50,395 nt of DNA. Source: a virus. Lineage: Duplodnaviria > Caudoviricetes. The notes under the pieces are model-generated. The model ran no database searches, was not told where the DNA came from, and worked only from the letters and a program-made list of their open reading frames with translations. The number at the start of each line of letters is the position of its first letter. Position 1 is the stretch's first letter. Below are positions 15,327 through 31,213 of this stretch, one piece after another. A program made the translations under genes and the position numbers. Where the stretch lies: IMG/VR virus record IMGVR_UViG_3300030107_000806, positions 1 to 50,395 of that record; one strand, 5' to 3'.

Positions 15327-15335
15327 ACAATACCA

Positions 15336-16337: not shown

Positions 16338-18229
16338 GATAAACAAACCTCCTCTTCATTGTCTTGTTCTAGTCGTACTCTCTTAACCTTTAAGTTAATA
16401 TTCTCTGCACTTTTTGCTTCCCTACTTCTTAGGTAATACAAACTTTTTAATCCTTGTTTCCATGCTTGATAATGTACTTTGTTAGTATAACGCAAGAAAT
16501 TATCATGCTCTTCTTGTGGAGCTTGTATGCGTGGAGCAACAAAAAATAAATTAACTGATTGAGCTTGACAGATATACTGTTGTCGCTTTGATGCGTGTTC
16601 GACAATCCAATTCTGGTCTATCTCATTCGCTGTTTTAAATACATCCTTTTCCATATCAGTTAAAAAGTCAAGGTGTTTTACTGAACCATCTTGTTCACTA
16701 ATGCTTTGCCATATCTTATCTTTAAATAAGGTATAATCACTATCATATTCTTTTTGTAGTTCTTCGTCTGCATTCCATTTAAGTTTAAGTAAGTTATGTA
16801 ATTGTCCATTTCTTACTTGGAATGTACCACTTAAAGTTTTATGTGTGTAAACATTTGCTCTTATTGGTTCTATCGAAGGACTTGTACCACCACAAATAAT
16901 ACTTGATGTAGCATTTGGAGCAATAGCAAGTAGGTGTGCATTACGCATACCAGTACCTTCCATGTCTGGTGCTTCTCCTCTTTCAATAGCTAACTCTTTA
17001 GAAGTTTCAACTGCTAATTCTTTTATCTGTTTAAAGATTTTTATATTCTGACCTGTAGCAATAGGACTATCAAAAGGAACATTTAATTTTTGTAAGTAAG
17101 TATGAAATCCCATAGCCCCTAGCCCAACACTTCGTTCTCTGTATGCACTATAACCAGATTTTTCAAACCCAGACATATCATCTTTAACTTTCATGTCTAA
17201 AATTTTTCCCTCATAATCATAAGAAAAATCATAAGTTGCCATGATAAAATGTTCTAAAACATTATCTAACATTCGTATCATGTCCGGAATAAATGTAGCT
17301 GATGTAGACCATTCATCATACTGTGCTAAATTAACACTAGACAAACAACATACAGCAGTTCTATCCTCATTGGTAGGTAAAGTTATTTCACTACATAAAT
17401 TAGATTGATTAACTTTTAATCCTAACTTTTGTTGTGACTCTGGTAAATGTTTATTAGATGTATCAATGAAATGTAAATAAGGTTCACCTGTTTCATGTCT
17501 TGTTTCTAATATTAATCTCCATAATTCTCTTGCATTAATAGACTTAGAAACTTTATTAGAGTGTGGGTCAATTAATTTCCAATCAATATTTTTAGATACT
17601 GCATTCATAAAGTCATCAGTAATATTAATTCCATGATGAAGGTTAAGACATTTTCTATTAATGTCACCGCCAGAAGACTTACGCATAAATAAAAACTCTT
17701 CTATCTCTGGATGAGACACACTCATATAACAAGCATAACTTCCTCGTCTTGTAGTTCCTTGATTGAATGCTAACATTTGACTATCAACCACTCTCATAAA
17801 AGGAATTGAACCTGTTGACATAGAGCCATGTGAGGTTGATGTTCCGTCACTTCTTATGTCGCCCCAATAACCACCAATACCACCACCATTACTTGCTAAC
17901 CAAATGTTCTCATCATAATGGTCACTTAATCCCCTTCTACTATCGTGTACATAATTAAGAAAACAAGATATAGGTAATCCTTTTTTTGTACCGGCATTAG
18001 AAAGTATCGGAGAAGAAAAACCAAACCAAGTTTTACTTGCATAATCATATATTCTTTGTGCCATATCCCAATCAGTCTTACCTCTATAAGTAGAGACATA
18101 CTTAGATGCTCTAGCAAAGGCGTGTTGAGGGGATGTTTCATTCTTATCTAGGTATCTATCTTGTATTGTAGCTATACCAAATGGTGTTAAATTTTTATCT
18201 CGTTCTAAATCTATTTTAATTTTACTCAT
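16325..18229 (-). CDS. nrdA: Ribonucleotide reductase class I alpha subunit (compact, no evident ATP cone)
   Basis: PISCF, SNLCSEI, AIAPNATSS, KSLYYLR, C-terminal CLSC. Confidence 0.96.
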   Translation of the reverse strand: MSKIKIDLERDKNLTPFGIATIQDRYLDKNETSPQHAFARASKYVSTYRGKTDWDMAQRIYDYASKTWFGFSSPILSNAGTKKGLPISCFLNYVHDSRRGLSDHYDENIWLASNGGGIGGYWGDIRSDGTSTSHGSMSTGSIPFMRVVDSQMLAFNQGTTRRGSYACYMSVSHPEIEEFLFMRKSSGGDINRKCLNLHHGINITDDFMNAVSKNIDWKLIDPHSNKVSKSINARELWRLILETRHETGEPYLHFIDTSNKHLPESQQKLGLKVNQSNLCSEITLPTNEDRTAVCCLSSVNLAQYDEWSTSATFIPDMIRMLDNVLEHFIMATYDFSYDYEGKILDMKVKDDMSGFEKSGYSAYRERSVGLGAMGFHTYLQKLNVPFDSPIATGQNIKIFKQIKELAVETSKELAIERGEAPDMEGTGMRNAHLLAIAPNATSSIICGGTSPSIEPIRANVYTHKTLSGTFQVRNGQLHNLLKLKWNADEELQKEYDSDYTLFKDKIWQSISEQDGSVKHLDFLTDMEKDVFKTANEIDQNWIVEHASKRQQYICQAQSVNLFFVAPRIQAPQEEHDNFLRYTNKVHYQAWKQGLKSLYYLRSREAKSAENINLKVKRVRLEQDNEEEVCLSCQA

Positions 18230-18497
18230 GTGATTTACACTCCCCTGCTATTGACATATAAGCAGACCCATCAATGTATGTATCACTACTAACTGCTCCT
18301 AGTTTTGTTCTTGCTATCTTTAATAAACACATCATAATTGCTACATCGTGTGGTGTTATCTCAACATCTTTATATGCTGACCATAACTTTGCAATGTTAT
18401 TATGGTTCTTAACTTTATCTCCATAGTCCTTATGTCTGTCGCCACCAACCAATTGTATAGCAGTTGTTAATAAATCTTTAGTGTTTAACTGGTCCAT
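18222..18497 (-). CDS. DUF6378-like phage protein
   Basis: GDRHKDYGD...IAKLWSAY...DVAIMMCLLKIAR...DTYIDGSAY pattern. Confidence 0.75.
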   Translation of the reverse strand: MDQLNTKDLLTTAIQLVGGDRHKDYGDKVKNHNNIAKLWSAYKDVEITPHDVAIMMCLLKIARTKLGAVSSDTYIDGSAYMSIAGECKSHE

Positions 18498-18714
18498 TAT
18501 CTTTTCCTTTCTTCCCTAGTATAACCTTTTCCATTTCTCTCATGCCAATGTACTGACACAAAGCATTATTGTTTTCACAAAACCAATGTAGTCCTGTACC
18601 TGTCATCATTATGCCTGTATCATCAGACATATTAATAAATTCTATATGCATCTTTTTTGTTTTACCAATACCTGTTGTTGATAATACAATATAAGCTTTA
18701 CCTTCTTCTAACAT
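18478..18714 (-). CDS. Hypothetical protein
   Basis: Start taken at internal ATG (MLEEGKAY) to avoid a long overlap with the endonuclease. Confidence 0.6.
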   Translation of the reverse strand: MLEEGKAYIVLSTTGIGKTKKMHIEFINMSDDTGIMMTGTGLHWFCENNNALCQYIGMREMEKVILGKKGKDNGPVKH

Positions 18715-19072
18715 TTTTAACCATCCATTCTTTTGGTATATCTTTATCACACCATTTAAAATTATTTTTCTCACACCACATAGCATAAGTTGTTTTAGAT
18801 TTCTTACTTAACTTAACATTAGGATTTTGAAAACAAAAACGAATATCACAATTCGTACTCTCTCTAATCCAAATATGTTTCTTTCTATCGTCAACTTTAA
18901 ATCTACCTTTTATTTCTACATATACATTAGTGCTAGGAAAATAAAGGTCGGGAAGATAAGAACGATGAATGACCGGTTGAACATACTTTATTTTTTCTCG
19001 TTCATAAAAGAACTTAATCTTCTTTGACTTTAATTTTTTTATTACTGTAGCTTCAAACTTAGAACGATACAT
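18698..19072 (-). CDS. Endonuclease I / Holliday junction resolvase (T7 gp3-like)
   Basis: YRSKFE, YLPDL, VEIKGRF, DRKKH, DIRFCF, TTYAMWC motifs. Confidence 0.92.
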   Translation of the reverse strand: MYRSKFEATVIKKLKSKKIKFFYEREKIKYVQPVIHRSYLPDLYFPSTNVYVEIKGRFKVDDRKKHIWIRESTNCDIRFCFQNPNVKLSKKSKTTYAMWCEKNNFKWCDKDIPKEWMVKNVRRR

Positions 19073-19335
19073 TATTTTTTATTATATATTATATCATATA
19101 ATTCTTGGAATGTCAAGTCTGGATTTTGTTTTAACTTTTTAATTACCCACTTGTATGACCACGCACTTAATTGAATTTGATTTTGAAACCAGTAATGAGT
19201 TTGTTCTGGCATCATTTCAAATAAATTTTTTTCATTAATCTTTTCTTTCTCTGGTCCTTCGACTAATGATTGCAACCATTCAACAAGAATACCTCGAGCT
19301 TTCTTTCGTATCTTTTTTATTTTCTTTCTATTCAT
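19072..19335 (-). CDS. Hypothetical protein
   Basis: 87-aa ORF coupled to its neighbours. Confidence 0.7.
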   Translation of the reverse strand: MNRKKIKKIRKKARGILVEWLQSLVEGPEKEKINEKNLFEMMPEQTHYWFQNQIQLSAWSYKWVIKKLKQNPDLTFQELYDIIYNKK

Positions 19336-19573
19336 CTTTACATTTCTCTGTGTTCTTTACTTTACTACAATAAAATTCTTTTGCTCTTTCATTCTGTGAT
19401 TTTATTTTTTCATTTTTATTTTTTAAAATCTTTTTCTTTTTATCTGGGTTAGGTTCTTCTTCCAATACTATCTCTACTACCTTTGCGGTTTCTTTAGCTA
19501 CAAATAAAGCACAACCTGTACAAGTAAATAATAATATTAATACTAATAAAAACATTACAAAAAATTTATACAT
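19328..19573 (-). CDS. Putative lipoprotein
   Basis: Hydrophobic signal ending in a CTGC lipobox-like motif. Confidence 0.65.
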   Translation of the reverse strand: MYKFFVMFLLVLILLFTCTGCALFVAKETAKVVEIVLEEEPNPDKKKKILKNKNEKIKSQNERAKEFYCSKVKNTEKCKDE

Positions 19574-20453
19574 TTACTTTTAGCTCCTCAACATTAGGTT
19601 CTTTAACAATCTTTGTCATATATACATTACTCTTTGCATACTTAAATAATCTTAAACCTTTACCTTCGTTAGCGTCAGAATGACATTCAACTTTATGTTG
19701 ACAATAAAAACAACCTAAAGGTAATTTCATGTTACCACCTTTCTCGTGTGGTATAGGTTCGTAACATTTTGCAGGTGGTTTATCATCTGCTAATTTTTCT
19801 TTAACATCTTTAATTAAATGTTTAACATTTGGTTTCATTAAATCATCTGGTCTAAACAAAGCTAACTCTCCTGTCGCTTTATTCAATGCAAGGAAGCCAC
19901 CCTTATCACTATCTTCATTCTCTTCATAACCGGATAGCTGTGCGACATAACCAAATGGGTCGTCACCATATAACGAACCATCCTTAAACTTTTTAAAACT
20001 ATACGATGAAGCAGTCTTAACATCAACAACTTCTCCATCAATTTTACTATCCATGTGTCCTACAATTCCATCAACAGTCACTTTCTTTTGTTGGTCTGTC
20101 ACTTCATGTCCTGCTAATTCTGCAAGAAATAAAATAAGATGTTCCATAAAATGCCCTGTTAAAAATTTTAATTGTAGTGCAGGGTCTGGTGTAGTTTTCT
20201 TAAATGGTCTATGTCTATCATACCATAACTGTCTTGCTGGTCTTCCAAGTATAGACATTCGTAAAACTTTTTTATCTGCTTTCATAGGATTTGTAAAATC
20301 CATTACGACTTCTTTTATATTATTTAAAAATTTAGATAGCTGTTCTTCACTAACATTTATTTTCTTTTTATAAGTAAGATTAACAAGTAACTTATTTATA
20401 TCTGGAACTAATGTATCTAAACTTTTAGTGTGTTTCTTTCCAGTTGTTTCCAA
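19566..20453 (-). CDS. PD-(D/E)XK (Cas4-like) exonuclease
   Basis: LRMSILGRP.RQLWY, GHMD...DVKTAS, YVAQLSGY, CFYC...C. Confidence 0.88.
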   Translation of the reverse strand: METTGKKHTKSLDTLVPDINKLLVNLTYKKKINVSEEQLSKFLNNIKEVVMDFTNPMKADKKVLRMSILGRPARQLWYDRHRPFKKTTPDPALQLKFLTGHFMEHLILFLAELAGHEVTDQQKKVTVDGIVGHMDSKIDGEVVDVKTASSYSFKKFKDGSLYGDDPFGYVAQLSGYEENEDSDKGGFLALNKATGELALFRPDDLMKPNVKHLIKDVKEKLADDKPPAKCYEPIPHEKGGNMKLPLGCFYCQHKVECHSDANEGKGLRLFKYAKSNVYMTKIVKEPNVEELKVNV

Positions 20454-22119
20454 TTTTATATTCTCCTGTTAGTGAACAACGAAGACCTAACTGGTCTCCT
20501 GCATCCACGATTGATTGTACTGCAAGTTTACCTAAACTTTCAGCGTGTTCTTCTTTAACTTGATATTGAAACTCATCATGTACATTTGCTACAGGTATAG
20601 CAACAATACTTTTTTCTTGTATATATTTTTCTAATAAGACAAGAGCTTTCTTCATAGCAATAGCTCCACCACCTTGTATTAAAGTGTTAAGGGCGGAATG
20701 CCTTTGTCTGATGATGAGCTTTCTTTGGTCGAGTCCTTTGAGGAAACCCTTTCGAGTAGCAATGTCCACTCTTTCTCGTAATCTTGCAAGACTTGGGAGA
20801 CGCTTAAGAAATCTTTCTTTAATCTGTCTTCCATAACCTTCAGACCTTCCGCAGATAGCTCCGAGTTTTTTGTTACCTGCCCCATAAATGAACGCATAGA
20901 TAAATGTCTTTGCAATATCTCTGCTTTCCAACCCTGCAAGAGTTTGATTTGTAGTGTGTATATCTCCATTAATGACTTCATTTATATATTCCTTATCATT
21001 CATATAGTGGGATAATATTCTTAACTCAAGTCCACTTGCGTCAATCCCCACTAACTTATATCCGTTTGGTACTACCCATAGTTCCCTGCATTCCTTACCA
21101 TAAGGAGAGTACACGGCAGGGATTTGAGCCATATTGGGCGACTGGTGGCTCATGCGTGATGTTATAGCCCCATTGGTTATAACTTTTCCATGCACTCTCC
21201 CATCTTCTTTTACTGCGTCAATCCATGACTCTATCATAGCCACTCGTTTTTGTAGTAAAAGAAACTCGTTAATCAATTCAGCTTCTGGTATATCTTTTAT
21301 CTCTGATAAAACTTTTTCATCTACAATTACATGACCCTTATCTGTTTTCTTTTTAGGTTTCCATCCTAGATTAATTAATCGTTGTCCTATCTGTTGTCTT
21401 GAACCAAGATTAAATTCTTGATACTTAACTTTAATAAAAGGTACACCCTTGACATATCCTCTAGCTTTATTGTTTGACTTTGGTATAAAAGTTTCTTCAA
21501 TCTTTAAAGGTTTAAATGTTTCTCTAACCTTTGTCTGTACTTCATCTATCTTTTGTTGTAGTCTAGCAAGAAGAAGATGTGCTTTCTCTATATCAATTTT
21601 AAATCCATAAGAAATTTGTCGTTCAATAATTGTTGCAACCTCATGCTCTAAATCAATTGACTCTTTAGAAAAATTTGCACTCTGTCTCTTTAATAAAGTA
21701 TAAACTTGTATTAATAATTTAACATCACGAATACAATACCTTAACATTTCTTGACTGAACTTTGTAAAGTCATCGAAGTCAAACTTCTTGTATCCAAACT
21801 TTAAACCAAATGCTTTTAAACTATGTCCTCCTTCTCTTACTGGATTAAATAATCTTGATAGAACTAATGTATCAATTACTTTACCAAGTTTAAATAAGTC
21901 AACGCCAAGTACATTCTTAATAACTGGTGCGTCAAAACCTATTATGTTGTGTCCAATAAACTCCGAATAATTACTCGCAACATCCTTAAATTTATGAATA
22001 TCATCCTCAGTATAATGTACAGTATTGCCCTTATCACAAATAGTGACCAAGCAAAAAATCTTATTAGGTAATGAACCTTTGAATAGTGGGGTCTCAATGT
22101 CGAGAAATAATTTAGCCAT
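20425..22119 (-). CDS. polA: DNA polymerase family A (T7-like, Tyr762 type)
   Basis: Exo motifs LDIET, GHNIIGFD, YCIRDV; pol motifs DASGLELR, RDIAKTFIYAFIYG, NVHDE. Confidence 0.96.
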   Translation of the reverse strand: MAKLFLDIETPLFKGSLPNKIFCLVTICDKGNTVHYTEDDIHKFKDVASNYSEFIGHNIIGFDAPVIKNVLGVDLFKLGKVIDTLVLSRLFNPVREGGHSLKAFGLKFGYKKFDFDDFTKFSQEMLRYCIRDVKLLIQVYTLLKRQSANFSKESIDLEHEVATIIERQISYGFKIDIEKAHLLLARLQQKIDEVQTKVRETFKPLKIEETFIPKSNNKARGYVKGVPFIKVKYQEFNLGSRQQIGQRLINLGWKPKKKTDKGHVIVDEKVLSEIKDIPEAELINEFLLLQKRVAMIESWIDAVKEDGRVHGKVITNGAITSRMSHQSPNMAQIPAVYSPYGKECRELWVVPNGYKLVGIDASGLELRILSHYMNDKEYINEVINGDIHTTNQTLAGLESRDIAKTFIYAFIYGAGNKKLGAICGRSEGYGRQIKERFLKRLPSLARLRERVDIATRKGFLKGLDQRKLIIRQRHSALNTLIQGGGAIAMKKALVLLEKYIQEKSIVAIPVANVHDEFQYQVKEEHAESLGKLAVQSIVDAGDQLGLRCSLTGEYKIGNNWKETH

Positions 22120-22128
22120 TGTTTACTC

Positions 22129-23805
22129 CTAAAATTTATCGTCTGCATCATCGTTATCCGTAGGTTTTTCTGTTTCGTGTAGTCTTCCTGTGTCCTTATC
22201 ATAATATAAATAAGTTGCAGGTCCAGTCATTCCTACAAATCTATTCTTTAATACTCTTAGTGATGTCGTATTACGAATAACCTCATTGTCATTCTGTGCG
22301 TCTCTCTCTAATCCAAGCACCATATCAGATAGTTGAGCAATAGAACCACTACCTCTTAGTTGAGATAGGGATGTGACTGCTCCCTCTTCATGTCCTTTTC
22401 CATCCGGTCTTTTAAGATGTGATACAATAATCAAAGCACAATCTGTTTCTTGTACAAGTGTACGAAGCTTTGTCATAATTTCATCGAGTCCTTTTCTTTC
22501 ATCACCAAACTCTTGGGATGATACAACCATACTGATATGGTCAAGTACAATGAACTTACATTCTAAAGCTTTCGCCATGTATCTAACTCTCGATACAATA
22601 TTATCTACAGAATTAGAACCGAAATGATTATAGAAATAAAATCTACCAGAGCCAATAGTCTTGTTAAAATATTCTATCTTATCATCTTTACTTAATGATA
22701 TGTCTGGTCTTCTAAGTGGTAGGTTTGCTTCAACACCCATGATGTCAAGTGCTGTTATCTTTGGGCTTTCCTCAAGCATAATCATACCTATGTTTTGTTC
22801 AGTAGTTTTATAGATATGATAAACTAATTCTTTAATGACTGATGTCTTACCTAATCCAGTACCTGCTGTGATAGTCACTAACTCTCCACTACGAATACCA
22901 TAGGTTAATTCATCTAAACCTTTCCAACCATAGTCTGTTCGTGATTTAACTACAGGTTCTAATACCTCATCAAGTAATGATGAACCTTTTATAATTCCGT
23001 CTGGTGCATGGACAGGTGCATTCCACCAACACTTCATATACTCTTCATACTTTCTAGCACGAAGCATATCATTTGCGTCTTTGAAATTTTCTGGTAGCTT
23101 AACTATCTTTGCTTTTGCAGGGGCAAATAATTCTGCAACCTTTTTACTTTTCTCTCTACCTATCTCATCATTATCAAAGTTAATAACTATATTCTCAAAC
23201 TTATCAAGCCATGTATAACTTTTCTTAATGTCTTTAATAGCAGAAGCAACACCATTCTTAATACTAACAACAGGATATTTTGAACCGAGTAATTGATACA
23301 CACTCATAGCGTCAATCTCTCCTTCAGTTATGGTCACATACTTACCTCCATTGAATAGATGTTGTCCAAACAATCCAGCATTACTTGTTGAACCATTGAC
23401 AGAAAATTGTTTATCTTTTACAAACCTATTCTTATACCCTATGATAGTACCTTGCTCATCATAGTATGGATAGATATGTTTTGATATTAAACCTTGACCA
23501 TTATAAGAAACTTTAACTCCATATTTCTTAACAGTCTCTTCATTTATTCCTCTATCTTTTATAGCATGGAAACCACCTGCTACATTAGAAGAATAACTAC
23601 TTAAAATATTACTTGGTAATTCTTTTACTAACTCCATATTGTCGCCCTTCTCTTTAATTAATTGTATGTCCTCGCTGTCTGGTGGGAAGTAGTTCTCACA
23701 AGCAAAGCAATAACTACTACCATCTTCGTTAATACTTCTTGCGTCACTACTTCCGCACTTATCACAAGGTACATGGTATTCTACAAAATTTGATTTGTCT
23801 TCCAT
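22129..23805 (-). CDS. Primase-helicase (T7 gp4-like)
   Basis: Zn finger CDKC...CFAC, TOPRIM EGEIDA/FDND, Walker A AGTGLGKT, LDHI, VSHL, LRGSGSIAQLSD, KNRF; acidic tail ending in Phe. Confidence 0.96.
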   Translation of the reverse strand: MEDKSNFVEYHVPCDKCGSSDARSINEDGSSYCFACENYFPPDSEDIQLIKEKGDNMELVKELPSNILSSYSSNVAGGFHAIKDRGINEETVKKYGVKVSYNGQGLISKHIYPYYDEQGTIIGYKNRFVKDKQFSVNGSTSNAGLFGQHLFNGGKYVTITEGEIDAMSVYQLLGSKYPVVSIKNGVASAIKDIKKSYTWLDKFENIVINFDNDEIGREKSKKVAELFAPAKAKIVKLPENFKDANDMLRARKYEEYMKCWWNAPVHAPDGIIKGSSLLDEVLEPVVKSRTDYGWKGLDELTYGIRSGELVTITAGTGLGKTSVIKELVYHIYKTTEQNIGMIMLEESPKITALDIMGVEANLPLRRPDISLSKDDKIEYFNKTIGSGRFYFYNHFGSNSVDNIVSRVRYMAKALECKFIVLDHISMVVSSQEFGDERKGLDEIMTKLRTLVQETDCALIIVSHLKRPDGKGHEEGAVTSLSQLRGSGSIAQLSDMVLGLERDAQNDNEVIRNTTSLRVLKNRFVGMTGPATYLYYDKDTGRLHETEKPTDNDDADDKF

Positions 23806-23824
23806 GTGTCGCCCTCTCTATATA

Positions 23825-24256
23825 TTAAAAGTCTTCTCCGTTTTCTTTGTCAGAGGTAAAGCCCTCTGCTACATCAAAGTCCTCGCCATAAGGCACGAGG
23901 TCTAAGACTTGTACTGCTTGTAGGTCTAAGCTTTTACCACTCTTACCTGCAAAGTTCCACTCAAATTCTTTGTAAAGAACTTTGATTTGTGAACCATTAC
24001 CTACCAATACATCAATAGGATTTTTCTTTGCGTCAACAAGTCTTGGCACAGGATTTTTTGTACCATCATTTCTTTCGACTTTTCTTTTAAGCTTAATGAT
24101 ATTACCTCTATCATCAGTCTTAACTGTTATCCCTCTGCTTTTAAATTCATCAGCAGTCTTATCATCAATGGCTAAATCCACTTGATAAACTGGGTCGAAT
24201 GTTGTATTGGGTCTAGTAATAGCACACCAATATGCTTTTCCTTCTACTGTTGGCAT
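23825..24256 (-). CDS. ssb: Single-stranded DNA-binding protein (T7 gp2.5-like)
   Basis: GKAYW, VGNGS, LQAVQVLDLVPY, acidic C-terminus ending in Phe; AAGGAGG RBS. Confidence 0.85.
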   Translation of the reverse strand: MPTVEGKAYWCAITRPNTTFDPVYQVDLAIDDKTADEFKSRGITVKTDDRGNIIKLKRKVERNDGTKNPVPRLVDAKKNPIDVLVGNGSQIKVLYKEFEWNFAGKSGKSLDLQAVQVLDLVPYGEDFDVAEGFTSDKENGEDF

Positions 24257-24292
24257 AATGCCCTCCTTTATTTAATCTATTTAATTACCTAT

Positions 24293-24321
24293 ATTATATC
24301 ATACTTCTTGCTTCAAGTCAA
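24293..24321 (-). promoter_or_regulatory. sigma70 promoter for the ssb-primase-pol-RNR operon
   Basis: TTGACT-17-TATAAT with extended -10 (TGa). Confidence 0.85.
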
Positions 24322-24338
24322 GAAGAAAGTTTATTTTA

Positions 24339-25020
24339 TTTGGGCGGTGGTTTCGCTGACAACCATATAACCACGCATTAAGTTAATTAAACTAGTATTG
24401 CGAGTCAACACCCAAAATTCTTAAACTTTCGTAAGGAGTGTGACAGGATTATCTTTTCTTCACAATCATTCTACTCGTCAGTAGACCCTTCTCCTTACGG
24501 AAATTTAAGTGGGTAGTTTTACGCAACGCATGTGTTCAGATGGCACTACCCAAACCTTTTGTTTAGTCAGTCTGGATTTTGGTTATGCCACTATGCTTTT
24601 TAAGATAACTTTTATGTGCGTTCTTTTTCAAACTTTTTATTGTGTTACCCCATAGCAGTAGAACTTAATCTTTCCCAAGCACCTACGCACTAAACAATCT
24701 ATTAACTTGGGTGTGTTTTATACTCACGATGTTAATTCACCGAGACTGGAACTTAATTACTGACCCATATCCAGTAGTGTCATTTAAGACTTTTCATTAG
24801 TAGTCAACCAAGTTAATTCTTTTTCGGATTTCTACGGAGGACTTATGGATTTACCTCCAACCTTTCACGAGCTATCCACCTATGAGATAACGCTACTCAG
24901 TACATACCTTCAACCCCTCATGCATTTGCACATCAAGATTAAAACCACTACCTTACAACTAGCTTACTGTTGTTCAGTCAGTAGAAACATATGTCTTGCA
25001 AAAACATATGTCCGAAACCT
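24339..25020 (-). ncRNA. Large structured non-coding RNA (or cluster of structured RNAs); 5' domain recalls the manA motif
   Basis: No credible ORF on -; many nested helices; most imperfect pairs checked are G-U on the - strand; upstream consensus promoter. Confidence 0.7.
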
Positions 25021-25073
25021 TTATTATATTATTAATTATATTATTAATATTATAATTAATATTATAATAATAA
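25020..25073. other. Pure A/T tract with 12-bp periodicity (possible unwinding element)
   Basis: 54 nt without G or C; TTAA at 25032, 25044, 25056. Confidence 0.55.
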
Positions 25074-25120
25074 CTATTAATAACTTTAACATAGTTATTT
25101 ATTTTATATATAATAGATAT

Positions 25121-25149
25121 ATTATATCATAGTTTGTTTCCAAAGTCAA
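25121..25149 (-). promoter_or_regulatory. sigma70 promoter driving the non-coding region
   Basis: TTGACT-17-TATAAT with TATGA before the -10, same layout as the ssb promoter. Confidence 0.85.
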
Positions 25150-25168
25150 TAACTATTTTAATTTTTTT

Positions 25169-25567
25169 TTATACCTGCGACACTTGGTCGCTATAAAACT
25201 CCTTGTTAAACATTTCTTTTATAGGAATAAGCACACATTTACTTGCCTTATTATCGCCTACATTCTTTGTCAACTTATCTTTATACTTATCCACAATTTT
25301 CTTTAGTGTTGATGTTTTAAATACAAGTGTACAAAATTCTTCCTTATCTTCTTCCAATCTATGAAACCAATAGTCAGATTTAGTAGCATAAATACCACTA
25401 GGTTTCCCTCTATATTCATACTCAATGGCTATGTTTCCAGTCTTCTTCCACCAATTTCTCTCTGACTTAACTTCAATGGTGCAGTTATTAAACATATCTT
25501 TTACTTTCTGTTCTTTAATCTGACCATACTTTAAATCAATATCAAAGTCTTTAAATCCCTTCTTCAT
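25169..25567 (-). CDS. Marine-phage protein with probable PD-(D/E)XK-like fold
   Basis: FDIDL..G...E...IEVKSE...TGNIAIEY...GKPSGI motif. Confidence 0.7.
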   Translation of the reverse strand: MKKGFKDFDIDLKYGQIKEQKVKDMFNNCTIEVKSERNWWKKTGNIAIEYEYRGKPSGIYATKSDYWFHRLEEDKEEFCTLVFKTSTLKKIVDKYKDKLTKNVGDNKASKCVLIPIKEMFNKEFYSDQVSQV

Positions 25568-25683
25568 TATTTACCTCTTCTAATTTTAAGTTTAAGTCTA
25601 ATGCGTCTGCGATTGCGTCTCTTACGAGAACCTATCTTGCGTCTGCCCTTATGCTTTTTTCTTTTTAAGTTTGCTCTACTCAT
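25567..25683 (-). CDS. 38-aa extremely basic peptide (not in ORF track)
   Basis: MSRANLKRKKHKGRRKIGSRKRRNRRRIRLKLKIRRGK; ATGA and TAATG coupling to both neighbours. Confidence 0.75.
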   Translation of the reverse strand: MSRANLKRKKHKGRRKIGSRKRRNRRRIRLKLKIRRGK

Positions 25684-25835
25684 TTCTTTTTATCATCTGT
25701 AGCTAACAACCATTCTTTCTCTGCTCTACTCAATCTATTCTCAATGTCTGCTTGTTGTTGTTCTTTATATAATTGTATAGCTTCATTTAATAGTTTAGCA
25801 ATCTTTGTTAATTGCTGTAAAATTTTTTCTTCCAT
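25680..25835 (-). CDS. 51-aa hypothetical protein (not in ORF track)
   Basis: GAGGAG RBS; MEEKILQQLTKIAKLL... Confidence 0.7.
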   Translation of the reverse strand: MEEKILQQLTKIAKLLNEAIQLYKEQQQADIENRLSRAEKEWLLATDDKKK

Positions 25836-25845
25836 ATAATACTCC

Positions 25846-26085
25846 TCATATTGTCATTAGTATTCCGGTTAAGAATATAGCAAAGGCAACTGAATTAATA
25901 AATATCAATGCTCTATCATGCCATAAATAACCTACTACTAACCAACCAAATACACCTACCATGTGAAAGTATAAATTGATTGGTGTTATTTCTACTGCTG
26001 TTAATACCATACCAACAAGCAATATAAAACTACTGCACCATTTAATATACCAACTTAAATCATGTGTAGGTGTAATCTTTTTCAT
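25846..26085 (-). CDS. Small multi-TM membrane protein (DUF6552-like)
   Basis: WYIKW...GWLVVGYLWHDRALIFIN pattern. Confidence 0.75.
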   Translation of the reverse strand: MKKITPTHDLSWYIKWCSSFILLVGMVLTAVEITPINLYFHMVGVFGWLVVGYLWHDRALIFINSVAFAIFLTGILMTI

Positions 26086-26111
26086 AACATACTCTTTCTA
26101 TTATAACATAT

Positions 26112-26387
26112 TTATTCTGTTTTGTCAAGCAATTCTCTAGCAGAATAAGTATCAGTTAATATACTATCTAACTTTTCTCTTAAAGTATCTCTATTGTATC
26201 TACCTGCACCAACCATTATACATTTAGAATAACTTCTAATCAAATGAATTAAATCCATATCTAATATATTTATATACTCATCTTTAGATGTTGAGTAGTG
26301 GTCTGCTATATCATCATTATGCATATCACTAGGTGTTGCTCTCTTAGTAATAACTTGTTGTAGTTCTAATAGTTCTCTTACTTTCAT
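26112..26387 (-). CDS. Hypothetical protein
   Basis: 91-aa ORF, AGGA RBS. Confidence 0.7.
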   Translation of the reverse strand: MKVRELLELQQVITKRATPSDMHNDDIADHYSTSKDEYINILDMDLIHLIRSYSKCIMVGAGRYNRDTLREKLDSILTDTYSARELLDKTE

Positions 26388-26388
26388 T

Positions 26389-26580
26389 TTACTTTCCTTT
26401 CTTTACATACTCAGATACAATCTGCTCATCAGAATAACTATCTAAATATTTATCTGTATCTACATCTAAGATACTGTCGTCTTCTACTGGCACAAGAATT
26501 TCTTCGCCTTCCCAACCAATAGTAATCCAATAGTCTATATTGTTTTTCTTTTTCTTTTTAAATGTATTAAACTTTATCAT
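26389..26580 (-). CDS. Hypothetical protein
   Basis: 63-aa ORF, GGGAG RBS, coupled. Confidence 0.65.
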   Translation of the reverse strand: MIKFNTFKKKKKNNIDYWITIGWEGEEILVPVEDDSILDVDTDKYLDSYSDEQIVSEYVKKGK

Positions 26581-26876
26581 TTACTCCCCCTTAGTTGTTG
26601 TAGTATTTCTTTCATCAGTTTTGTTTTCCTTATACCTTTCCATAATTTATTATGAAACTTATAAGTCTTTTTATTTATGATACATTTTGCTGTATCTAAA
26701 TTCCAATTCTTTAAGTAAGCATACCTCATCTTTTCATTACTTAAATATAATCCTTTTCTAATTGCATTCAATTTTATTTTCTTATACTCCCCATCAATAT
26801 GATAGACACAATGAAAATATTTTTTGGATGACTTAACAAACCAAAGGTAAGTTCCACAATCAATTAGTTTCCACAT
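26577..26876 (-). CDS. Hypothetical basic protein
   Basis: 99-aa ORF, AAGGA RBS. Confidence 0.65.
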   Translation of the reverse strand: MWKLIDCGTYLWFVKSSKKYFHCVYHIDGEYKKIKLNAIRKGLYLSNEKMRYAYLKNWNLDTAKCIINKKTYKFHNKLWKGIRKTKLMKEILQQLRGSK

Positions 26877-27068
26877 TTATTTTTTCCTTTCATAATATTC
26901 TAATGCTTTATTAAAGTCTTCATCATAATCTTTTATAACATCTTTAACTCTAGCAGTAATAAAATCTAATCTCTGTTGTGGTAAATGATAATTTTTTTTA
27001 TTTCCCATTTCATCATTACTCTTAACAATCACTCGTAGTCTATCAATATATTTATCTGCATTTAACAT
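26877..27068 (-). CDS. Hypothetical protein
   Basis: 63-aa ORF, GAGGAG RBS. Confidence 0.7.
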   Translation of the reverse strand: MLNADKYIDRLRVIVKSNDEMGNKKNYHLPQQRLDFITARVKDVIKDYDEDFNKALEYYERKK

Positions 27069-27071
27069 TCA

Positions 27072-27215
27072 TTACTCCTCTTTAAATAATTTTTTAACAA
27101 ATTCTATTAACTCTAAAAATTCTTGGTTAGGTGTCAGCTCTGCACTATCCCAATCAACATTAGAATTAATTTCTAAAGCATTAATAATTTCTCGTTCCAT
27201 ATCTTTATTGTTCAT
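27072..27215 (-). CDS. 47-aa acidic hypothetical protein (not in ORF track)
   Basis: AAGGA RBS; MNNKDMEREIINALE... Confidence 0.65.
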   Translation of the reverse strand: MNNKDMEREIINALEINSNVDWDSAELTPNQEFLELIEFVKKLFKEE

Positions 27216-27237
27216 AATAATTATCCTTATATATCAA

Positions 27238-27513
27238 TTAGTTAAAGCGATACACACTACGAGTACCACTCCCCCCAACATACCCAATATCAAATTCTAA
27301 TCTACCAAGTATGCCTTCGTCAGTCGTCACATCAAACTCTGGGTGCATAGGTAAGTCTTCATCATTAAAAAATTCATCAAACTTTTCTTTCAATGCGTCA
27401 ACACCTACATTACCTCGTATGATTTCATAAATTATTTCTTGTTCTTCTTCAGAAAAATATTCGTTGTAAAATTCTGCAACATTTTCTCTCCAATTATATA
27501 ATGCGTCATCCAT
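27238..27513 (-). CDS. Acidic hypothetical early protein
   Basis: 91-aa ORF, GGGAG RBS. Confidence 0.7.
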   Translation of the reverse strand: MDDALYNWRENVAEFYNEYFSEEEQEIIYEIIRGNVGVDALKEKFDEFFNDEDLPMHPEFDVTTDEGILGRLEFDIGYVGGSGTRSVYRFN

Positions 27514-27715
27514 TTTTATGCTCCCTTATTATATCATCAACATGAACACCGCCCATTTCATCAAAGAAACCTGCGTCTGTTCCTCGTACATCCATGAGAA
27601 CGATTGTCTTATACCCTCGCCCTTGTCTTGCACTCTCAATTAACTTTGCTCTTATATCATAACCAAAATTATTTATGATATACCAACTGTCTTTAACTAA
27701 TTCACTTGCTTTCAT
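27506..27715 (-). CDS. Hypothetical early protein
   Basis: 69-aa ORF overlapping its neighbours. Confidence 0.7.
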   Translation of the reverse strand: MKASELVKDSWYIINNFGYDIRAKLIESARQGRGYKTIVLMDVRGTDAGFFDEMGGVHVDDIIREHKNG

Positions 27716-27857
27716 TTTCTTCTCTCCATTTCTCTATGTGTTGCTCGTTTGTTGAATCGTCAATGTAATAAGTGTACCCATTTAAATTAATATAGACAGC
27801 ATTATCATCAACAACATCTATTTTCATATTTCCAATACCTATTTCAGTTCGTTCCAT
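27702..27857 (-). CDS. 51-aa hypothetical protein (not in ORF track)
   Basis: AGGAG RBS; MERTEIGIGNMKIDVVDDNAVYINLNGYTYYIDDST... Confidence 0.7.
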   Translation of the reverse strand: MERTEIGIGNMKIDVVDDNAVYINLNGYTYYIDDSTNEQHIEKWREENESK

Positions 27858-27868
27858 ATTATTTACTC

Positions 27869-28075
27869 CTATCTAAACAAATCATTAACTTGTTCGATTG
27901 CTAAGTTTGTTCTACATTCTTGGTTATAATAATCTGTTATATCTTTTTCAGATACAATATAATCATAACCTCTTATATTTATTTTAGTTCCAACATTCTC
28001 TTTAATGTTTTCTTCTAAAGTTCCCTCGAATATTAACTCTCTAATACTCAAGTCTAAATCACTCATAGCACCCAT
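27869..28075 (-). CDS. Hypothetical early protein
   Basis: Start moved to ATG 28075 (MGAMSDL) behind AGGAG; the track's upstream extension lies in the promoter. Confidence 0.7.
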   Translation of the reverse strand: MGAMSDLDLSIRELIFEGTLEENIKENVGTKINIRGYDYIVSEKDITDYYNQECRTNLAIEQVNDLFR

Positions 28076-28102
28076 AATTTTTTCTCCTGTTAGTTTATAT
28101 AT

Positions 28103-28139
28103 ACTATAACATTGTGTCAACATTATGTCAACACAATGT
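28103..28139 (-). promoter_or_regulatory. sigma70 promoter embedded in an inverted repeat
   Basis: TTGACA-17-TATAGT with extended -10; ACATTGTGT...ACACAATGT palindrome. Confidence 0.75.
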
Positions 28140-28166
28140 TTATAGTATGATTTATTTTTTTTATAG

Positions 28167-28232
28167 TGCAGTCGTTTTACTAAACACTAACCTCACGACT
28201 TTCCCTCGCAGTATTTCTACTGGGTGTTTGGG
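28167..28232 (-). ncRNA. Small two-hairpin structured element with GAAA tetraloop
   Basis: CAGUA-GAAA-UACUG and AGUCGU/ACGACU stems; AAACAC/GUGUUU could form a pseudoknot. Confidence 0.4.
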
Positions 28233-28949
28233 TTATACACTTTCCAAGACAAAGCCACTATAATCTTTTATAGCTTTTCCCTTTGCCTTTAGTCCACAGA
28301 TAACATTACTATCATCTGTAAATCTTAAATCACTTTCATCTGCATTGATAACTTTATAACTCTTATAAGTATCCGGTAATTCATGCCTAAATACAGCACT
28401 TATATTTCCACCTTTACTTAATATATCAAATGCTTCTCTTATATTATCCTCATTTAAACTATATGTCAAGTGATAATTGCTAGGTAATTGTCCATTAACA
28501 TACTTAACAGCCCTCTTATAGACCTTAGTATAATCATAGAATTGTATGTGAGGAAACTCCTCAAATATTCCTGTTGTTTCCCATGCAATATCAGATGTGC
28601 CATTTAGTCGCACACATGGTATTAGTTCTTTTTTCTTAGCATAATTAATAAAGTTATTTATTTCTCTTTTTAATTGTGTCAAGAATGTGTCTCTCTCCTG
28701 TATAAACCACCTTGTTTTATTGATACGCCCTAACTGTACATTACTAAATGCACCATGACCGGCTGTATTTAAACAAGAACTTTTACAACCATTACTTGCC
28801 ATTGGACATACATTAAACCCAGACAAATCACTAGGAGCAAGGTATAAAATCGCTGTCATATACCCATATTTCTGACCCTTAATTGTCTTAGCGTTCTTGT
28901 CAATGTTTAATAACTTTTTAGATTTAATAAACTCTAATTGTTTTACCAT
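28233..28949 (-). CDS. GP88-like protein (Cys triad, radical-SAM-like)
   Basis: LYLAP...NVCPMASNGCKSSCLNTAG.G, VRLNGTSDI, QFYDYTK, NYHLTYS, D.SDLRF, GLKAKG. Confidence 0.85.
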   Translation of the reverse strand: MVKQLEFIKSKKLLNIDKNAKTIKGQKYGYMTAILYLAPSDLSGFNVCPMASNGCKSSCLNTAGHGAFSNVQLGRINKTRWFIQERDTFLTQLKREINNFINYAKKKELIPCVRLNGTSDIAWETTGIFEEFPHIQFYDYTKVYKRAVKYVNGQLPSNYHLTYSLNEDNIREAFDILSKGGNISAVFRHELPDTYKSYKVINADESDLRFTDDSNVICGLKAKGKAIKDYSGFVLESV

Positions 28950-28973
28950 ATTATTAACTCCTTGTCAAGTAAA

Positions 28974-29014
28974 ATATAGCAAGTCATAACCCATTCATAA
29001 CTTGCTATATCTTT
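28974..29014 (-). terminator. 16-bp hairpin (terminator or RNase III site)
   Basis: ATATAGCAAGT/ACTTGCTATAT perfect 11 bp plus 5 bp with G-U on -; short U run follows. Confidence 0.55.
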
Positions 29015-29021
29015 TTATATA

Positions 29022-29276
29022 TTATATCTTATTGTTGTATAAGTCAAGCGAATAATCGTTTATTCTTATACCACTTCGTCTATAATAGTTAGGATAGTAC
29101 CAAGTTTTTAAACCCTTACTAACTCTTATAAAACCCTCATTAGATTTACCACCACTTGTAATGTCTATTGAGTACCCATTATTCTTTTCTAAATTTTCTC
29201 TATATCTTGTAGGTTTAATTCCTTTTAATTGAAAATCTACAAAATGATAGAAATATACTTTAATAAAATTCCACAT
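29022..29276 (-). CDS. Hypothetical early protein
   Basis: 84-aa ORF, AAGGAG RBS, own promoter. Confidence 0.7.
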   Translation of the reverse strand: MWNFIKVYFYHFVDFQLKGIKPTRYRENLEKNNGYSIDITSGGKSNEGFIRVSKGLKTWYYPNYYRRSGIRINDYSLDLYNNKI

Positions 29277-29296
29277 AATTTTACTCCTTTTATTAT

Positions 29297-29325
29297 GTTA
29301 TATCATATTCCTAACACCATGTCAA
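29297..29325 (-). promoter_or_regulatory. sigma70 early promoter
   Basis: TTGACA-17-TATAAC with extended TG. Confidence 0.7.
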
Positions 29326-29328
29326 GAA

Positions 29329-29556
29329 TTATAATCTCGTAAATAGTTTTAAATGTGCATTGTTTGTTTGTTCAGCATATAATTTTATTGTTTTTCTTAT
29401 CTCTTTATTAAGATATTTTACTATGTCAATATCTTTTTTAGGATATATAATACATATATCTCTACCGGTTAATTTACACCAATAATCCAAACACTTTTCT
29501 TGCTCTTTTATATCGTAAAATTCAACTAATCTTTTTTCAAATTCTTTTTTATTCAT
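29329..29556 (-). CDS. Hypothetical early protein
   Basis: 75-aa ORF, AAGGA RBS. Confidence 0.65.
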   Translation of the reverse strand: MNKKEFEKRLVEFYDIKEQEKCLDYWCKLTGRDICIIYPKKDIDIVKYLNKEIRKTIKLYAEQTNNAHLKLFTRL

Positions 29557-29573
29557 ATTATTTTATCCTTTAT

Positions 29574-29759
29574 TTAAAGTTTTTTTAAACCAAATTCTAT
29601 TCTTGGATTATCACTATAAATCATAGATGTATCTATTTCACCTATCCATTTAATAGGAATATCCTTATTACTGTCATAATTATTATTTACTAACATAAAT
29701 AAACATTCTAAATTTTCGTCATAATTTTTTAAATCTTTTATTAATTTTTTAATTTTCAT
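29574..29759 (-). CDS. Hypothetical early protein
   Basis: 61-aa ORF, AGGAG RBS, MKIKKLI..L..YD start typical of small phage proteins. Confidence 0.7.
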   Translation of the reverse strand: MKIKKLIKDLKNYDENLECLFMLVNNNYDSNKDIPIKWIGEIDTSMIYSDNPRIEFGLKKL

Positions 29760-29977
29760 ATTATTTTAACTCCTACTATTTTATACTCTATTTTCTTAAA
29801 ATTGTCAAGTATTTTTACATAACTAATTTTATGTAATTTCTTGGCGGTCTTATTAAATCTTGCTATCCAATTTCTAGCGTCATACTCATTATTAAATCTT
29901 TTAATATAAGTATTTGATTTGTCTATATATTCTACTTTGTTTTTAGGTTCAGTCCATAATTCATAATCATAATTCAT
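29756..29977 (-). CDS. Hypothetical early protein
   Basis: 73-aa ORF, GGAG RBS. Confidence 0.65.
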   Translation of the reverse strand: MNYDYELWTEPKNKVEYIDKSNTYIKRFNNEYDARNWIARFNKTAKKLHKISYVKILDNFKKIEYKIVGVKII

Positions 29978-30003
29978 AATTTTACTCCATTTATTATAAT
30001 TCC

Positions 30004-30032
30004 TTTATAACATAACTTATTTACATTGTCAA
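30004..30032 (-). promoter_or_regulatory. sigma70 early promoter
   Basis: TTGACA-17-TATAAA with extended TG. Confidence 0.7.
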
Positions 30033-30049
30033 GAATTATTTTTAATTAT

Positions 30050-30268
30050 TTATGCATACATAGTTTTTTTAGTTTTTCCACCTCTAAAAGAAAATCCATT
30101 ATACGCACTTGAAATTCCATAAGAGCTATTTAGCTGTAATTTTGTCAAGTTTTCAAATTCTTTTAGTAATTTGCTTTTTGGTTTAAATATAACTTTTTTA
30201 TATGGTATTGTTGCTTTTATATAAGTTATTTTAAAATCTTTATGTTTTACAGTTCTATTATATTTCAT
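30050..30268 (-). CDS. Hypothetical basic early protein
   Basis: 72-aa ORF, AAGGA RBS. Confidence 0.65.
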   Translation of the reverse strand: MKYNRTVKHKDFKITYIKATIPYKKVIFKPKSKLLKEFENLTKLQLNSSYGISSAYNGFSFRGGKTKKTMYA

Positions 30269-30290
30269 AATTTAATTCCTTTTTATATAA

Positions 30291-30323
30291 ACCCTTTATA
30301 CCATATTATATAAAGGGTGTCAA
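30291..30323 (-). promoter_or_regulatory. sigma70 early promoter overlapped by a 10-bp inverted repeat
   Basis: TTGACA-17-TATAAA; ACCCTTTATA (30291-30300) / TATAAAGGGT (30309-30318). Confidence 0.75.
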
Positions 30324-30334
30324 GTTTTTTTTAT

Positions 30335-30526
30335 TTATATTGCTCTTTTTTTATCGTGGGTATTTCTAACATATTGTCTAAATTTAAATTCATCAAATCT
30401 TGAATTGTCATTTATAAATATATCAATTAATCCATTTAATAAGTTATTTGGTGTAAATTGCTCATTATCATTTTTTTCTAATTTTATTAATAAATCAGCA
30501 AATTTAATATAATCTTTTTTAGTCAT
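30335..30526 (-). CDS. First early gene, small phage protein
   Basis: MTKKDYIKFA...F..DN.RFD..KF family pattern; AAGGA RBS. Confidence 0.75.
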   Translation of the reverse strand: MTKKDYIKFADLLIKLEKNDNEQFTPNNLLNGLIDIFINDNSRFDEFKFRQYVRNTHDKKRAI

Positions 30527-30554
30527 AATATTTTTTCCTTTTGTTTATAAGCCC

Positions 30555-30590
30555 ATTATACCACAGATTTTATTTGAATTATGTTCAAAT
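30555..30590 (-). promoter_or_regulatory. Extended -10 promoter with upstream palindrome
   Basis: TGgTATAAT without a consensus -35; ATTTGAA-N5-TTCAAAT occupies the -35 position. Confidence 0.55.
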
Positions 30591-30703
30591 TGTGATTTAT
30601 TTGAAAATAATTTTAAATATAAATAAATTTAAATAATTAATTAAATTTTGTTAGATATAGCAAGGAATTTTTAAACTGTCAGATTGTGTAAGATATATTT
30701 ATT

Positions 30704-30793
30704 AATCTTTACAAATCTTTACAAGCTGTCAACTAGAATTATGTAAATCTGTAAAGTCTGTAAAGTTCTGTAAAGTTTGTAATATTCTGTAAT
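30704..30793. repeat. Array of short TGTAA(AG) repeats
   Basis: Two inverted copies (AATCTTTACA x2), then six direct copies at 30742, 30750, 30759, 30769, 30778, 30788. Confidence 0.75.
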
Positions 30794-30917
30794 GTTATAA
30801 TATAACATATTAAGGGCTGGGCAGGTGGCATGGCGGGTGGGATGGCGTTATATATCTTACTCATACAAAATTAGCCAATTAGAGTGTCAACCAGATAGGT
30901 CGGGGGTAAATAGAAAT

Positions 30918-30949
30918 AAAAAAAGCCCTGTCGGATTATGACAGAGCTT
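30918..30949 (-). terminator. Rho-independent terminator
   Basis: - strand AAGCUCUGUC-loop-GACAGGGC followed by a U7 run. Confidence 0.8.
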
Positions 30950-31033
30950 GTAAAAACTATATAGTAATAAAATAAATATAAATAAATCTATACCTGTGTA
31001 TTAGGTGTTAGAACCCCCGGAGGGTATACTTAT

Positions 31034-31061
31034 ATTATACACCTCTATGCAGATTTGTCAA
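31034..31061 (-). promoter_or_regulatory. Leftward sigma70 promoter (divergent pair)
   Basis: TTGACA-16-TATAAT with AGGTG before the -10. Confidence 0.75.
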
Positions 31062-31074
31062 TAGAAAAAACTAC

Positions 31075-31103
31075 TTGACAAAAGTGTCAACTAGGTGTAT
31101 AAT
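31075..31103 (+). promoter_or_regulatory. Promoter of the packaging/morphogenesis operon
   Basis: TTGACA-17-TATAAT with AGGTG before the -10. Confidence 0.85.
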
Positions 31104-31121
31104 AGTATTAGGGAGGAAAAA

Positions 31122-31211
31122 ATGAAAACTATCTTTAAAAAACTAAAAAAACTATTGAAACATTATTTTAAATATAAACCAGAGAAAAAATATCTCAGAG
31201 GTAAGGATTAA
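31122..31211 (+). CDS. 29-aa basic peptide (not in ORF track)
   Basis: GGAGG RBS; MKTIFKKLKKLLKHYFKYKPEKKYLRGKD. Confidence 0.7.
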   Translation: MKTIFKKLKKLLKHYFKYKPEKKYLRGKD

Positions 31212-31213
31212 CT

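Follow-up and report, generated by a model that had tools for sequence, protein, structure and literature searches.

A predicted tandem array of structured RNA modules, including a divergent variant of the manA motif, ahead of a phage replisome operon

What occupies the longest gene-free stretch in the replication gene block of a marine phage, directly ahead of its single-stranded DNA-binding protein (SSB) gene? The window, that is, the whole stretch of DNA that was analyzed, is an entire IMG/VR virus record (IMGVR_UViG_3300030107_000806; 50,395 nt) with an estimated completeness of 92%. On its minus strand a gene for a 132-aa protein (phrog_13596) is followed by a gap, by ssb (phrog_112), and then by the genes for a T7-type primase-helicase and a family A DNA polymerase. 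The minus strand from 24257 to 25168 (912 nt) is without any open reading frame (ORF) of at least 40 aa, and the runner-up gap in the minus-strand gene block (15300 to 31500) is 212 nt, in agreement with the first-pass annotation, which had singled out this region as the longest gene-free stretch of the operon. Two plus-strand ORFs (48 and 95 aa) overlap the gap. A Pfam search of the two gave no match, and opposite-strand ORFs at the corresponding sites of relatives vary in length. No tRNA or tmRNA genes were found within the window. The stretch from 24339 to 25020 had also been described as more GC-rich than its flanks. Its GC content (0.380; window, 0.327) does exceed that of the upstream gene (0.313) but is hardly different from that of ssb (0.375). 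The GC content of 25021 to 25168, which includes the upstream promoter, is 0.088. The only cultured phage with DNA-level similarity to the window is Pelagibacter phage HTVC115P, which has the same gene order and a gap of 403 nt ahead of ssb. Twenty-three RNA runs from 16 studies share 11 to 27% of the sampled words, shares that are not evidence of a transcript. The features of the region, in minus-strand order, are as follows.

25121..25149, minus strand: promoter P1, sigma-70 type with extended -10 (11/12 consensus matches plus TG)
25024..25113, minus strand: spacer, nearly all A/T, from P1 to module A
24814..25023, minus strand: module A, predicted multi-helix junction RNA (closing helix 25011-25017/24822-24828)
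24696..24822, minus strand: module B, predicted pseudoknotted RNA (closing helix 24808-24817/24701-24710)
24559..24697, minus strand: module C, domain with a variable inner hairpin (perfect 9-bp closing helix; z -1.94)
24511..24551, minus strand: module D, 7-bp hairpin around variable inserts (a recurring type)
24420..24509, minus strand: module E, domain closed by a 19-bp stem (18/19 positions pair) with an inner hairpin
24339..24416, minus strand: module F, terminal domain (8-bp closing helix, 8/8 pair, one G-U)
24293..24321, minus strand: promoter P2, directly upstream of ssb (11/12 consensus matches plus TG)
24262-24268, minus strand: ribosome-binding site of ssb
23825..24256, minus strand: ssb, Gp2.5-like SSB (phrog_112, E 6e-10), the first gene past the array

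Both promoters lie where the first-pass annotation had placed them. The predicted transcript start from P1 is near 25114. P1 is kept in relatives and in HTVC115P, with 81.3% identity to the latter over a segment that starts at the end of the upstream gene, includes P1, and reaches into the spacer. The regions of P1 and P2 are about 74% similar to each other. At P2 an inverted repeat covers the -35 box and the promoter spacer, and the resulting stem-loop was flagged as a terminator-like site on the plus strand (24304-24325). This inverted repeat (24293-24325) may represent an operator or a PeSL-type promoter/stem-loop cassette. The P2-type promoters of relatives likewise carry an inverted repeat over the -35 box and spacer. 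Because no terminator-like sites were found on the minus strand between P1 and P2, transcription from P1 would be expected to run across the whole array into the operon.

The A/T spacer was found in every relative examined from the clade of the window, and its fold (25024-25113) was not significant (z -1.07). It is kept in HTVC115P as well as in the window clade (window, 25024-25113; L328, 4060-4150), including a short block around an ATG. This ATG was considered as the start of a conserved peptide and rejected, since reading of the sequences revealed no conserved peptide behind it. The spacer might serve as an origin or a DNA unwinding element, or be a tract of RNA without structure. In or near the spacer of many promoter-like sites that precede modules A and B there is a C-rich motif (TCCCA or near variants), seen in L299, L312, L314, L270, L272, and L225, which suggests a phage-specific promoter element.

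The first-pass annotation had proposed that the stretch between the promoters specifies a large structured RNA on the minus strand, built from a series of nested helices. All nine of the helices defined by coordinates are complementary (seven perfect, one pairing at 18/19 positions, and two with one G-U each), and both of the hairpins that had been noted are there. On the minus strand, 24339 to 25020 folds better than its shuffles, as had been anticipated (z = -4.73, 0/20 shuffles as good), and on the plus strand the value is z = -1.93. The modules were less informative one at a time. The folds of B, C, and D were not significant (z of -1.5, -1.9, and -1.3, respectively), E showed no strand preference (z of -4.89 on the minus strand and -6.08 on the plus strand), and F gave z of -2.27 (minus strand) and -0.91 (plus strand). 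Because singly folded B, C, D, and E are unconvincing, the case for structure rests on comparative evidence.

Relatives were fetched via SSB (67 loci) and via the upstream gene (80 of 179 confirmed). Among the fetched loci, the distance from the upstream gene to ssb varies from 337 to 1231 nt, and the gap exists in 71 distinct versions. In relatives whose SSBs are 96 to 100% identical, some segments of the gap are 90 to 100% identical and others are missing or replaced, and the breakpoints between such near-identical relatives fall at helix boundaries. For example, one close relative passes from the end of module B nearly straight to P2. Distant relatives (SSB 72 to 76% identical) have only P1, the A/T spacer, a structured element of about 205 nt, P2, and ssb; module A is the sole module in these minimal relatives. 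The independent loss of segments and the position of the breakpoints are therefore the basis for dividing the stretch into A to F, each with its own closing helix. These comparisons show that the predicted modules are gained and lost independently, and the stretch, judged in this way, consists of six or more RNA modules on the minus strand that fold independently and follow one another in tandem. Of the two forms that the first-pass annotation had offered, a polycistronic array of structured RNAs is thus the one that the relatives display, and a single RNA of about 680 nt in the size range of GOLLD and ROOL is contradicted by them. In addition, Rfam gave no match to GOLLD or ROOL, either in the window at the gathering cutoff or in 24200-25200 with E allowed to reach 10. 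The slot that separates the upstream gene from ssb is hypervariable and in other clades holds small ORFs.

Module A belongs to a large family. An alignment of 16 close relatives predicted 59 consensus pairs, with compensatory change in 24. The pattern of the conserved hairpin of A occurs in at least 119 viral stretches, and a model of the module (R1) was found at full length in 87 of the first 100 viral loci fetched with that pattern. On a second set of 100 sources R1 gave 97 matches in marine viral contigs, 78 of them distinct, and in the window it gave exactly one match, module A, with 233 bits. Among the 78 distinct sequences, the alignment of which was fitted to R1 and has one helix made invariant by ascertainment through the fetching pattern, 94.7% of the cells are paired, compared with 67.0% after shuffling (0/500 as high) and 38 to 46% when the partners are slid, and both sides change in 46 of the 59 pairs. 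The copy in the window has 47 Watson-Crick pairs, 11 G-U pairs, and 1 non-pair. Throughout the family, G-U accounts for 638 of 4161 cells and A-C or C-A for 28. The first-pass annotation had seen the same bias in the window, with most of the imperfect pairs inspected being G-U on the minus strand and A-C on the plus strand. The excess of G-U places the fold of module A only on the minus strand of the window, and the specificity of the structure for that strand is regarded as shown. A scan of family A for extra covarying column pairs gave no run of neighboring pairs.

R1 also detected 19 more copies in 68 loci that had been fetched for another reason, with scores down to 45 bits, and none in 32 syntenic loci that lack the pattern. 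As a control, the pattern of A was followed up in 100 bacterial and archaeal genome loci, and the full RNA was found in 1; the genome matches to the pattern were accordingly dismissed as chance. This sole cellular-genome match (L368, 4091-4300, minus strand) is on a 9.8-kb contig of a marine planctomycete metagenome-assembled genome (MAG), probably a viral contig inside the MAG bin. An apparent 65-aa ORF over A in relatives was rejected as a gene of its own since it is part of the longer upstream gene. Comparison of A and B by blastn with 50,697 phage records gave chance-level matches only, and the cultured carriers of both modules were located through relatives and the models R1 and R2.

To which known RNA, if any, is module A related? 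The first-pass annotation had noted a likeness of the first 200 nt or so to the marine manA motif. The manA model (RF01745) matches the window at 24826-25010 with 24.8 bits over positions 1-192/192 (E 8.9e-5 in a 231-nt search). In the loci of 15 relatives it was found at full length in 4, exactly at the R1 positions, with 26.7 to 41.9 bits and E of 2e-7 to 6e-3; the value of 2e-7 came from a 58.7-kb search, as opposed to the 231 nt searched for the window. L300 (40.2 bits) and the cultured phage HTVC008M (25.9 bits) also match. Thus, the likeness is full length (192/192) in the window and in all six matching relatives, at positions that coincide with those of the independent model R1, and is below threshold, since the gathering cutoff of 55.2 bits was reached neither in the window nor in the relatives (up to 41.9 bits). 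Rfam searches of the whole window at gathering, of 1001 nt at E <=10, and with RF01745 over the whole genome gave nothing real; the likeness surfaced only in narrow or multi-relative searches. By these matches, module A is a divergent variant of the manA motif and not a member by Rfam's rule, because every score falls below the gathering cutoff. The earlier description of the RNA as undescribed is therefore not upheld for module A, and it stands for B and the remaining modules, which have no Rfam counterpart.

In its original description manA is a candidate riboswitch of 5' untranslated regions, found almost only in marine metagenomes and T4-like cyanophages (Weinberg et al. 2010), and a recent preprint reports assemblies of 8, 10, and 60 manA RNA subunits that are formed in vitro via kissing loops (Ren et al. 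bioRxiv 2026 preprint). Module A and manA share the order of helices and conserved unpaired blocks over the whole 192-position model, and both are found in marine phages and in 5' untranslated regions. They differ in that the hairpin past the conserved junction block is shorter in A. The hosts also differ: A is found in SAR11 phages (HTVC008M and relatives of HTVC115P), whereas manA is found in cyanophages and Photobacterium. Downstream of A are genes for SSBs and small early proteins, and downstream of manA are mannose, nucleotide, and photosynthesis genes. Furthermore, unlike manA, module A in the window precedes further RNA modules.

The first hairpin loop of module A is self-complementary. 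A palindromic tetramer is present in 70 of 75 distinct sequences (UGCA in 62, GAUC in 5, and UCGA, UAUA, and CAUG in 1 each), and in the other five a palindromic hairpin apex was recognized by reading. Such a loop would fit a two-fold kissing contact. By analogy with the kissing-loop assemblies that the preprint describes for manA in vitro, module A probably self-associates via this loop.

In other phages the orientation of module A is always that of most neighboring genes. The downstream gene is for a Gp2.5-like SSB in 8 distinct contexts, for a gp32-like SSB (PF08804, E 4e-44) in 11, and for a 288-aa protein followed by a Cas4-domain exonuclease in 7; in other contexts it is for a small unknown protein or a helix-turn-helix (HTH) protein. 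The 288-aa protein was examined as a candidate SSB, and BLASTP, a PDB sequence search, Pfam, and PHROGs gave nothing usable, with weak family leads from a protein atlas. A promoter-like (sigma-70) site ends 0 to 15 nt ahead of A in 37 of 73 distinct loci, compared with 1 in a control window 300 nt upstream. Past A, a ribosome-binding site plus ATG is present within 60 nt in 27 of 72 loci; terminator-like sites at up to 110 nt are seen in 2 of 72. In the window, A sits in the leader, and modules B to F and P2 separate it from ssb. HTVC008M, the context of which is 99.6% identical to one A-bearing locus, has module A at 5027-5235 (R1, 113.7 bits), 60 nt ahead of its SSB gene. In this phage an annotated 56-aa hypothetical protein (4993-5163; L450, 2577-2747) overlaps the manA-class RNA and is probably RNA annotated as a coding sequence. 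Similar short ORFs that overlap the RNA are present in 9 loci.

Module B is the second well-supported family. BLAST returned pieces of B at unrelated sites in other contigs, and a 23-nt pattern from B was found in 75 viral stretches. The predicted structure of the family consists of a closing helix (at least 9 different self-complementary versions), two hairpins, and a pseudoknot (4 covarying versions). A model built from 9 seed sequences (R2) gave 72 matches, 54 of them distinct, in 100 sources, and its sole match in the window is B (87.5 bits, E 3.5e-16, full model). In the alignment, which was fitted to R2 and in which the fetching pattern makes parts of two helices invariant, 97.2% of the cells are paired, compared with 82.6% after shuffling and 33 to 44% when slid, and both sides change in 21 of 30 pairs, including 4/4 in the pseudoknot. 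The window copy forms 28 of the 30 pairs, and the strand signal of the family is G-U 48 versus A-C 11. The alignments thus demonstrate conserved, covarying predicted structures for both A and B; covariation among homologues, which the first-pass annotation had left to be looked for, was found in each family (97 matches for A and 72 for B).

As judged by reading the sequences, many copies of B are just past a promoter-like site and just ahead of a ribosome-binding site. One of the hairpins of B takes inserts of up to about 100 nt. In HTVC115P a full-length family B RNA (2734-2870; L449; 75.2 bits) is located in an unannotated gap. Rfam had no match for B in a 135-nt search or in 16 B-bearing loci, and the family was found neither in Rfam 15 nor in the article texts searched. 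Literature searches that covered noncoding RNAs and transcriptomes of pelagiphages as well as RNA motifs of phages turned up no description of the A and B RNAs. Within the scope of these searches, structured RNAs that are stacked and reassorted at a hypervariable slot are undescribed as well.

The evidence for modules C to F comes from few, closely related copies and is thinner than that for A and B. C is 99% identical in L002/L274, and a shorter form of it is found in L288, inside the variable hairpin of a B RNA that serves as the insert site. Hairpins of the D type are present as 26 distinct variants in the fetched loci, with stems that covary and tolerate G-U and with inserts of 8 to 130 nt. 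D recurs up to several times per array (L261) and is also in HTVC115P. Copies of E that are 90 to 98% identical are found in the arrays of L003, L260, L261, L282, and L288, with two candidate compensatory changes among 6 variants. For F, L267 has a match of 82% identity across 83 nt and L111 one of 78% across 58 nt. L260, L261, L282, and L288 have ORF-poor arrays of about 700 to 1000 nt, composed of B, D, E, and other modules, ahead of a primase gene.

How might such an array function? We favor, with moderate confidence, the reading that A to F form an RNA module array in the P1-transcribed leader of the replisome operon and that A and B are cis-acting cassettes within it. Host RNA polymerase would transcribe A to F from P1 as the long leader of the operon for ssb, primase-helicase, and DNA polymerase, and P2 would provide a second, short-leader route to the same genes. 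As cis-acting cassettes, A and B might control how their own transcript is translated, how stable it is, or how it is elongated. The array could have been built by the stacking and swapping of cassettes, perhaps through recombination between the similar P1 and P2 regions. Since in most other phages A and, by reading, B are located directly between a sigma-70-like promoter and the ribosome-binding site of the gene that opens an early or replication operon, both most likely act as cis leader cassettes. The window itself does not conform to the simplest version of this idea. Some 97 nt separate module A from P1 and some 550 nt, with P2 in between, separate it from the ribosome-binding site of ssb, so that here A cannot work by simply occluding this site. 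The same distance problem is found in the 700- to 1000-nt arrays ahead of primase genes in other contigs. Also against a leader are the modest share of A loci with a strict ribosome-binding site and ATG nearby (27/72) and the 2 loci in which A is followed by a terminator-like hairpin, as expected of a free-standing RNA. No expression platform was identified for A in the scans of its flanks, in which a ribosome-binding site is adjacent in 27/72 loci and a terminator-like site follows in 2/72.

An alternative is that the modules are trans-acting RNA-only products that are excised or released from the leader and serve during infection as assemblies, sponges, or decoys, such as manA-type cages formed by A, with the 5' operon position simply a means of early expression. 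Modules lie at variable distance from any ribosome-binding site, both in this phage and in the L260, L261, L282, and L288 arrays; D hairpins recur along arrays in the manner of a processing signal; and the slot in which the array is found holds small ORFs in other clades, as accessory loci do. The palindromic loop of A and the 8-, 10-, and 60-mers that manA RNAs form in vitro, according to the preprint, would also be explained, as would the terminator-like site past the RNA in 2/72 A loci. However, the other 70 of the 72 A loci have no nearby terminator and many lead straight into a ribosome-binding site, processing sites and discrete RNA species would have to be postulated, and the oligomers are known only in vitro, for canonical manA, from one preprint. 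We consider release of trans-acting products unlikely on balance. A broader and similarly unlikely version is that abundant SAR11 phages carry reassorting "RNA islands", in which a promoter drives a series of independent structured RNAs. The islands would contain a manA-class RNA that forms cages, a new class with a pseudoknot, and modules closed by hairpins. Like accessory genes, but made of RNA, they would act in trans during infection, as RNA-only assemblies or as sponges or decoys against host factors or defenses, instead of as classical leaders.

Two further explanations fit the data much less well than a leader composed of cis-acting cassettes. One is a DNA-level role, with the RNA folds incidental: the features would be an origin of replication, or cassettes for mobility or recombination such as inverted-repeat elements or promoter/stem-loop cassettes. 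A near-pure A/T spacer downstream of a strong promoter and beside replisome genes, modules that are bounded by inverted repeats and move between contexts, an E domain that folds equally well on both strands, and similar repeats at P1 and P2 that could mediate swapping would suit such a role. Yet the ratio of G-U to A-C is 638:28 in A and 48:11 in B, an excess from which it follows that pairing is kept on one strand only, and an RNA tertiary fold is in keeping with the multi-helix junctions, with the covariation in the pseudoknot, and with the unpaired nucleotides that are conserved. A DNA-level role in the spacer or in the mobility of cassettes would, moreover, be compatible with RNA function, and as a full explanation it is very unlikely. 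The other is that the stretch is one large multi-domain RNA of about 680 nt, of the GOLLD/ROOL kind, with a single fold. The whole minus strand beats its shuffles, there is no terminator-like site between the promoters, and the size is within the range stated for such RNAs, but A is alone in minimal relatives, B is alone at other loci and in HTVC115P, C is found inside a B hairpin (L288), module content differs among relatives with nearly identical SSBs, and neither GOLLD nor ROOL is matched in Rfam. A single large RNA is, on this evidence, extremely improbable.

An array of leader cassettes, as we favor it, has partial precedents. In tandem riboswitch and leader arrangements, several independent cis-regulatory RNA domains are found in series before one operon. 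The array likewise consists of serial, independently folding RNA domains ahead of one operon, but no ligand, expression platform, or terminator was found per module, and there is a second promoter before the gene. The mRNA of phage T4 gene 32 has a translational operator in its leader. Module A resembles it as a structured leader RNA before a phage SSB gene (gp32-like in 11 contexts and Gp2.5-like in 8); it differs in that A also precedes unrelated small genes and has a far larger fold. GOLLD and ROOL are phage-associated RNAs. They are similar in length to the whole array, which in contrast is made up of separable modules rather than one conserved fold and has no Rfam match; they are reported as homo-oligomeric RNA-only assemblies of unknown function (Kretsch et al. 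Nature 2025). The P2 stem-loop over the -35 box and spacer and the similarity of P1 to P2 are PeSL-like in general features. PeSLs flank protein-coding ORFs, whereas the shuffled content of the array is structured RNA. Reports on T4-type phages describe PeSL cassettes as repeated early-promoter motifs on either side of variable content, for which a part in modular shuffling has been proposed (Arbiol et al. 2010; Comeau et al. 2014).

The manA motif is an orphan RNA class that is reported, in the 2026 preprint, to form RNA-only cages. The present comparisons extend the class by a large subthreshold branch in SAR11 phages, including the cultured HTVC008M, and tie this branch to SSB, early, and replication operons. 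They add a second well-supported pseudoknotted family, B, which is present in the cultured HTVC115P, and show that structured RNAs can be combined in series and exchanged, in the way of gene cassettes, within a hypervariable slot. Because families A and B are present in phages with cultured hosts, the function of the manA class is open to phage genetics and RNA biochemistry.

The window contains a second ORF-poor stretch at 30527-31213 (687 nt, no ORF of at least 60 aa on either strand), in which the models R1 and R2 gave no match. Another type of structured RNA was encountered in the marine viral contig L213, in which a permuted tmRNA (4074-4289, minus strand; RF04321, 106.7 bits versus a cutoff of 47) is located about 2 kb from the manA-class RNA of the same contig.
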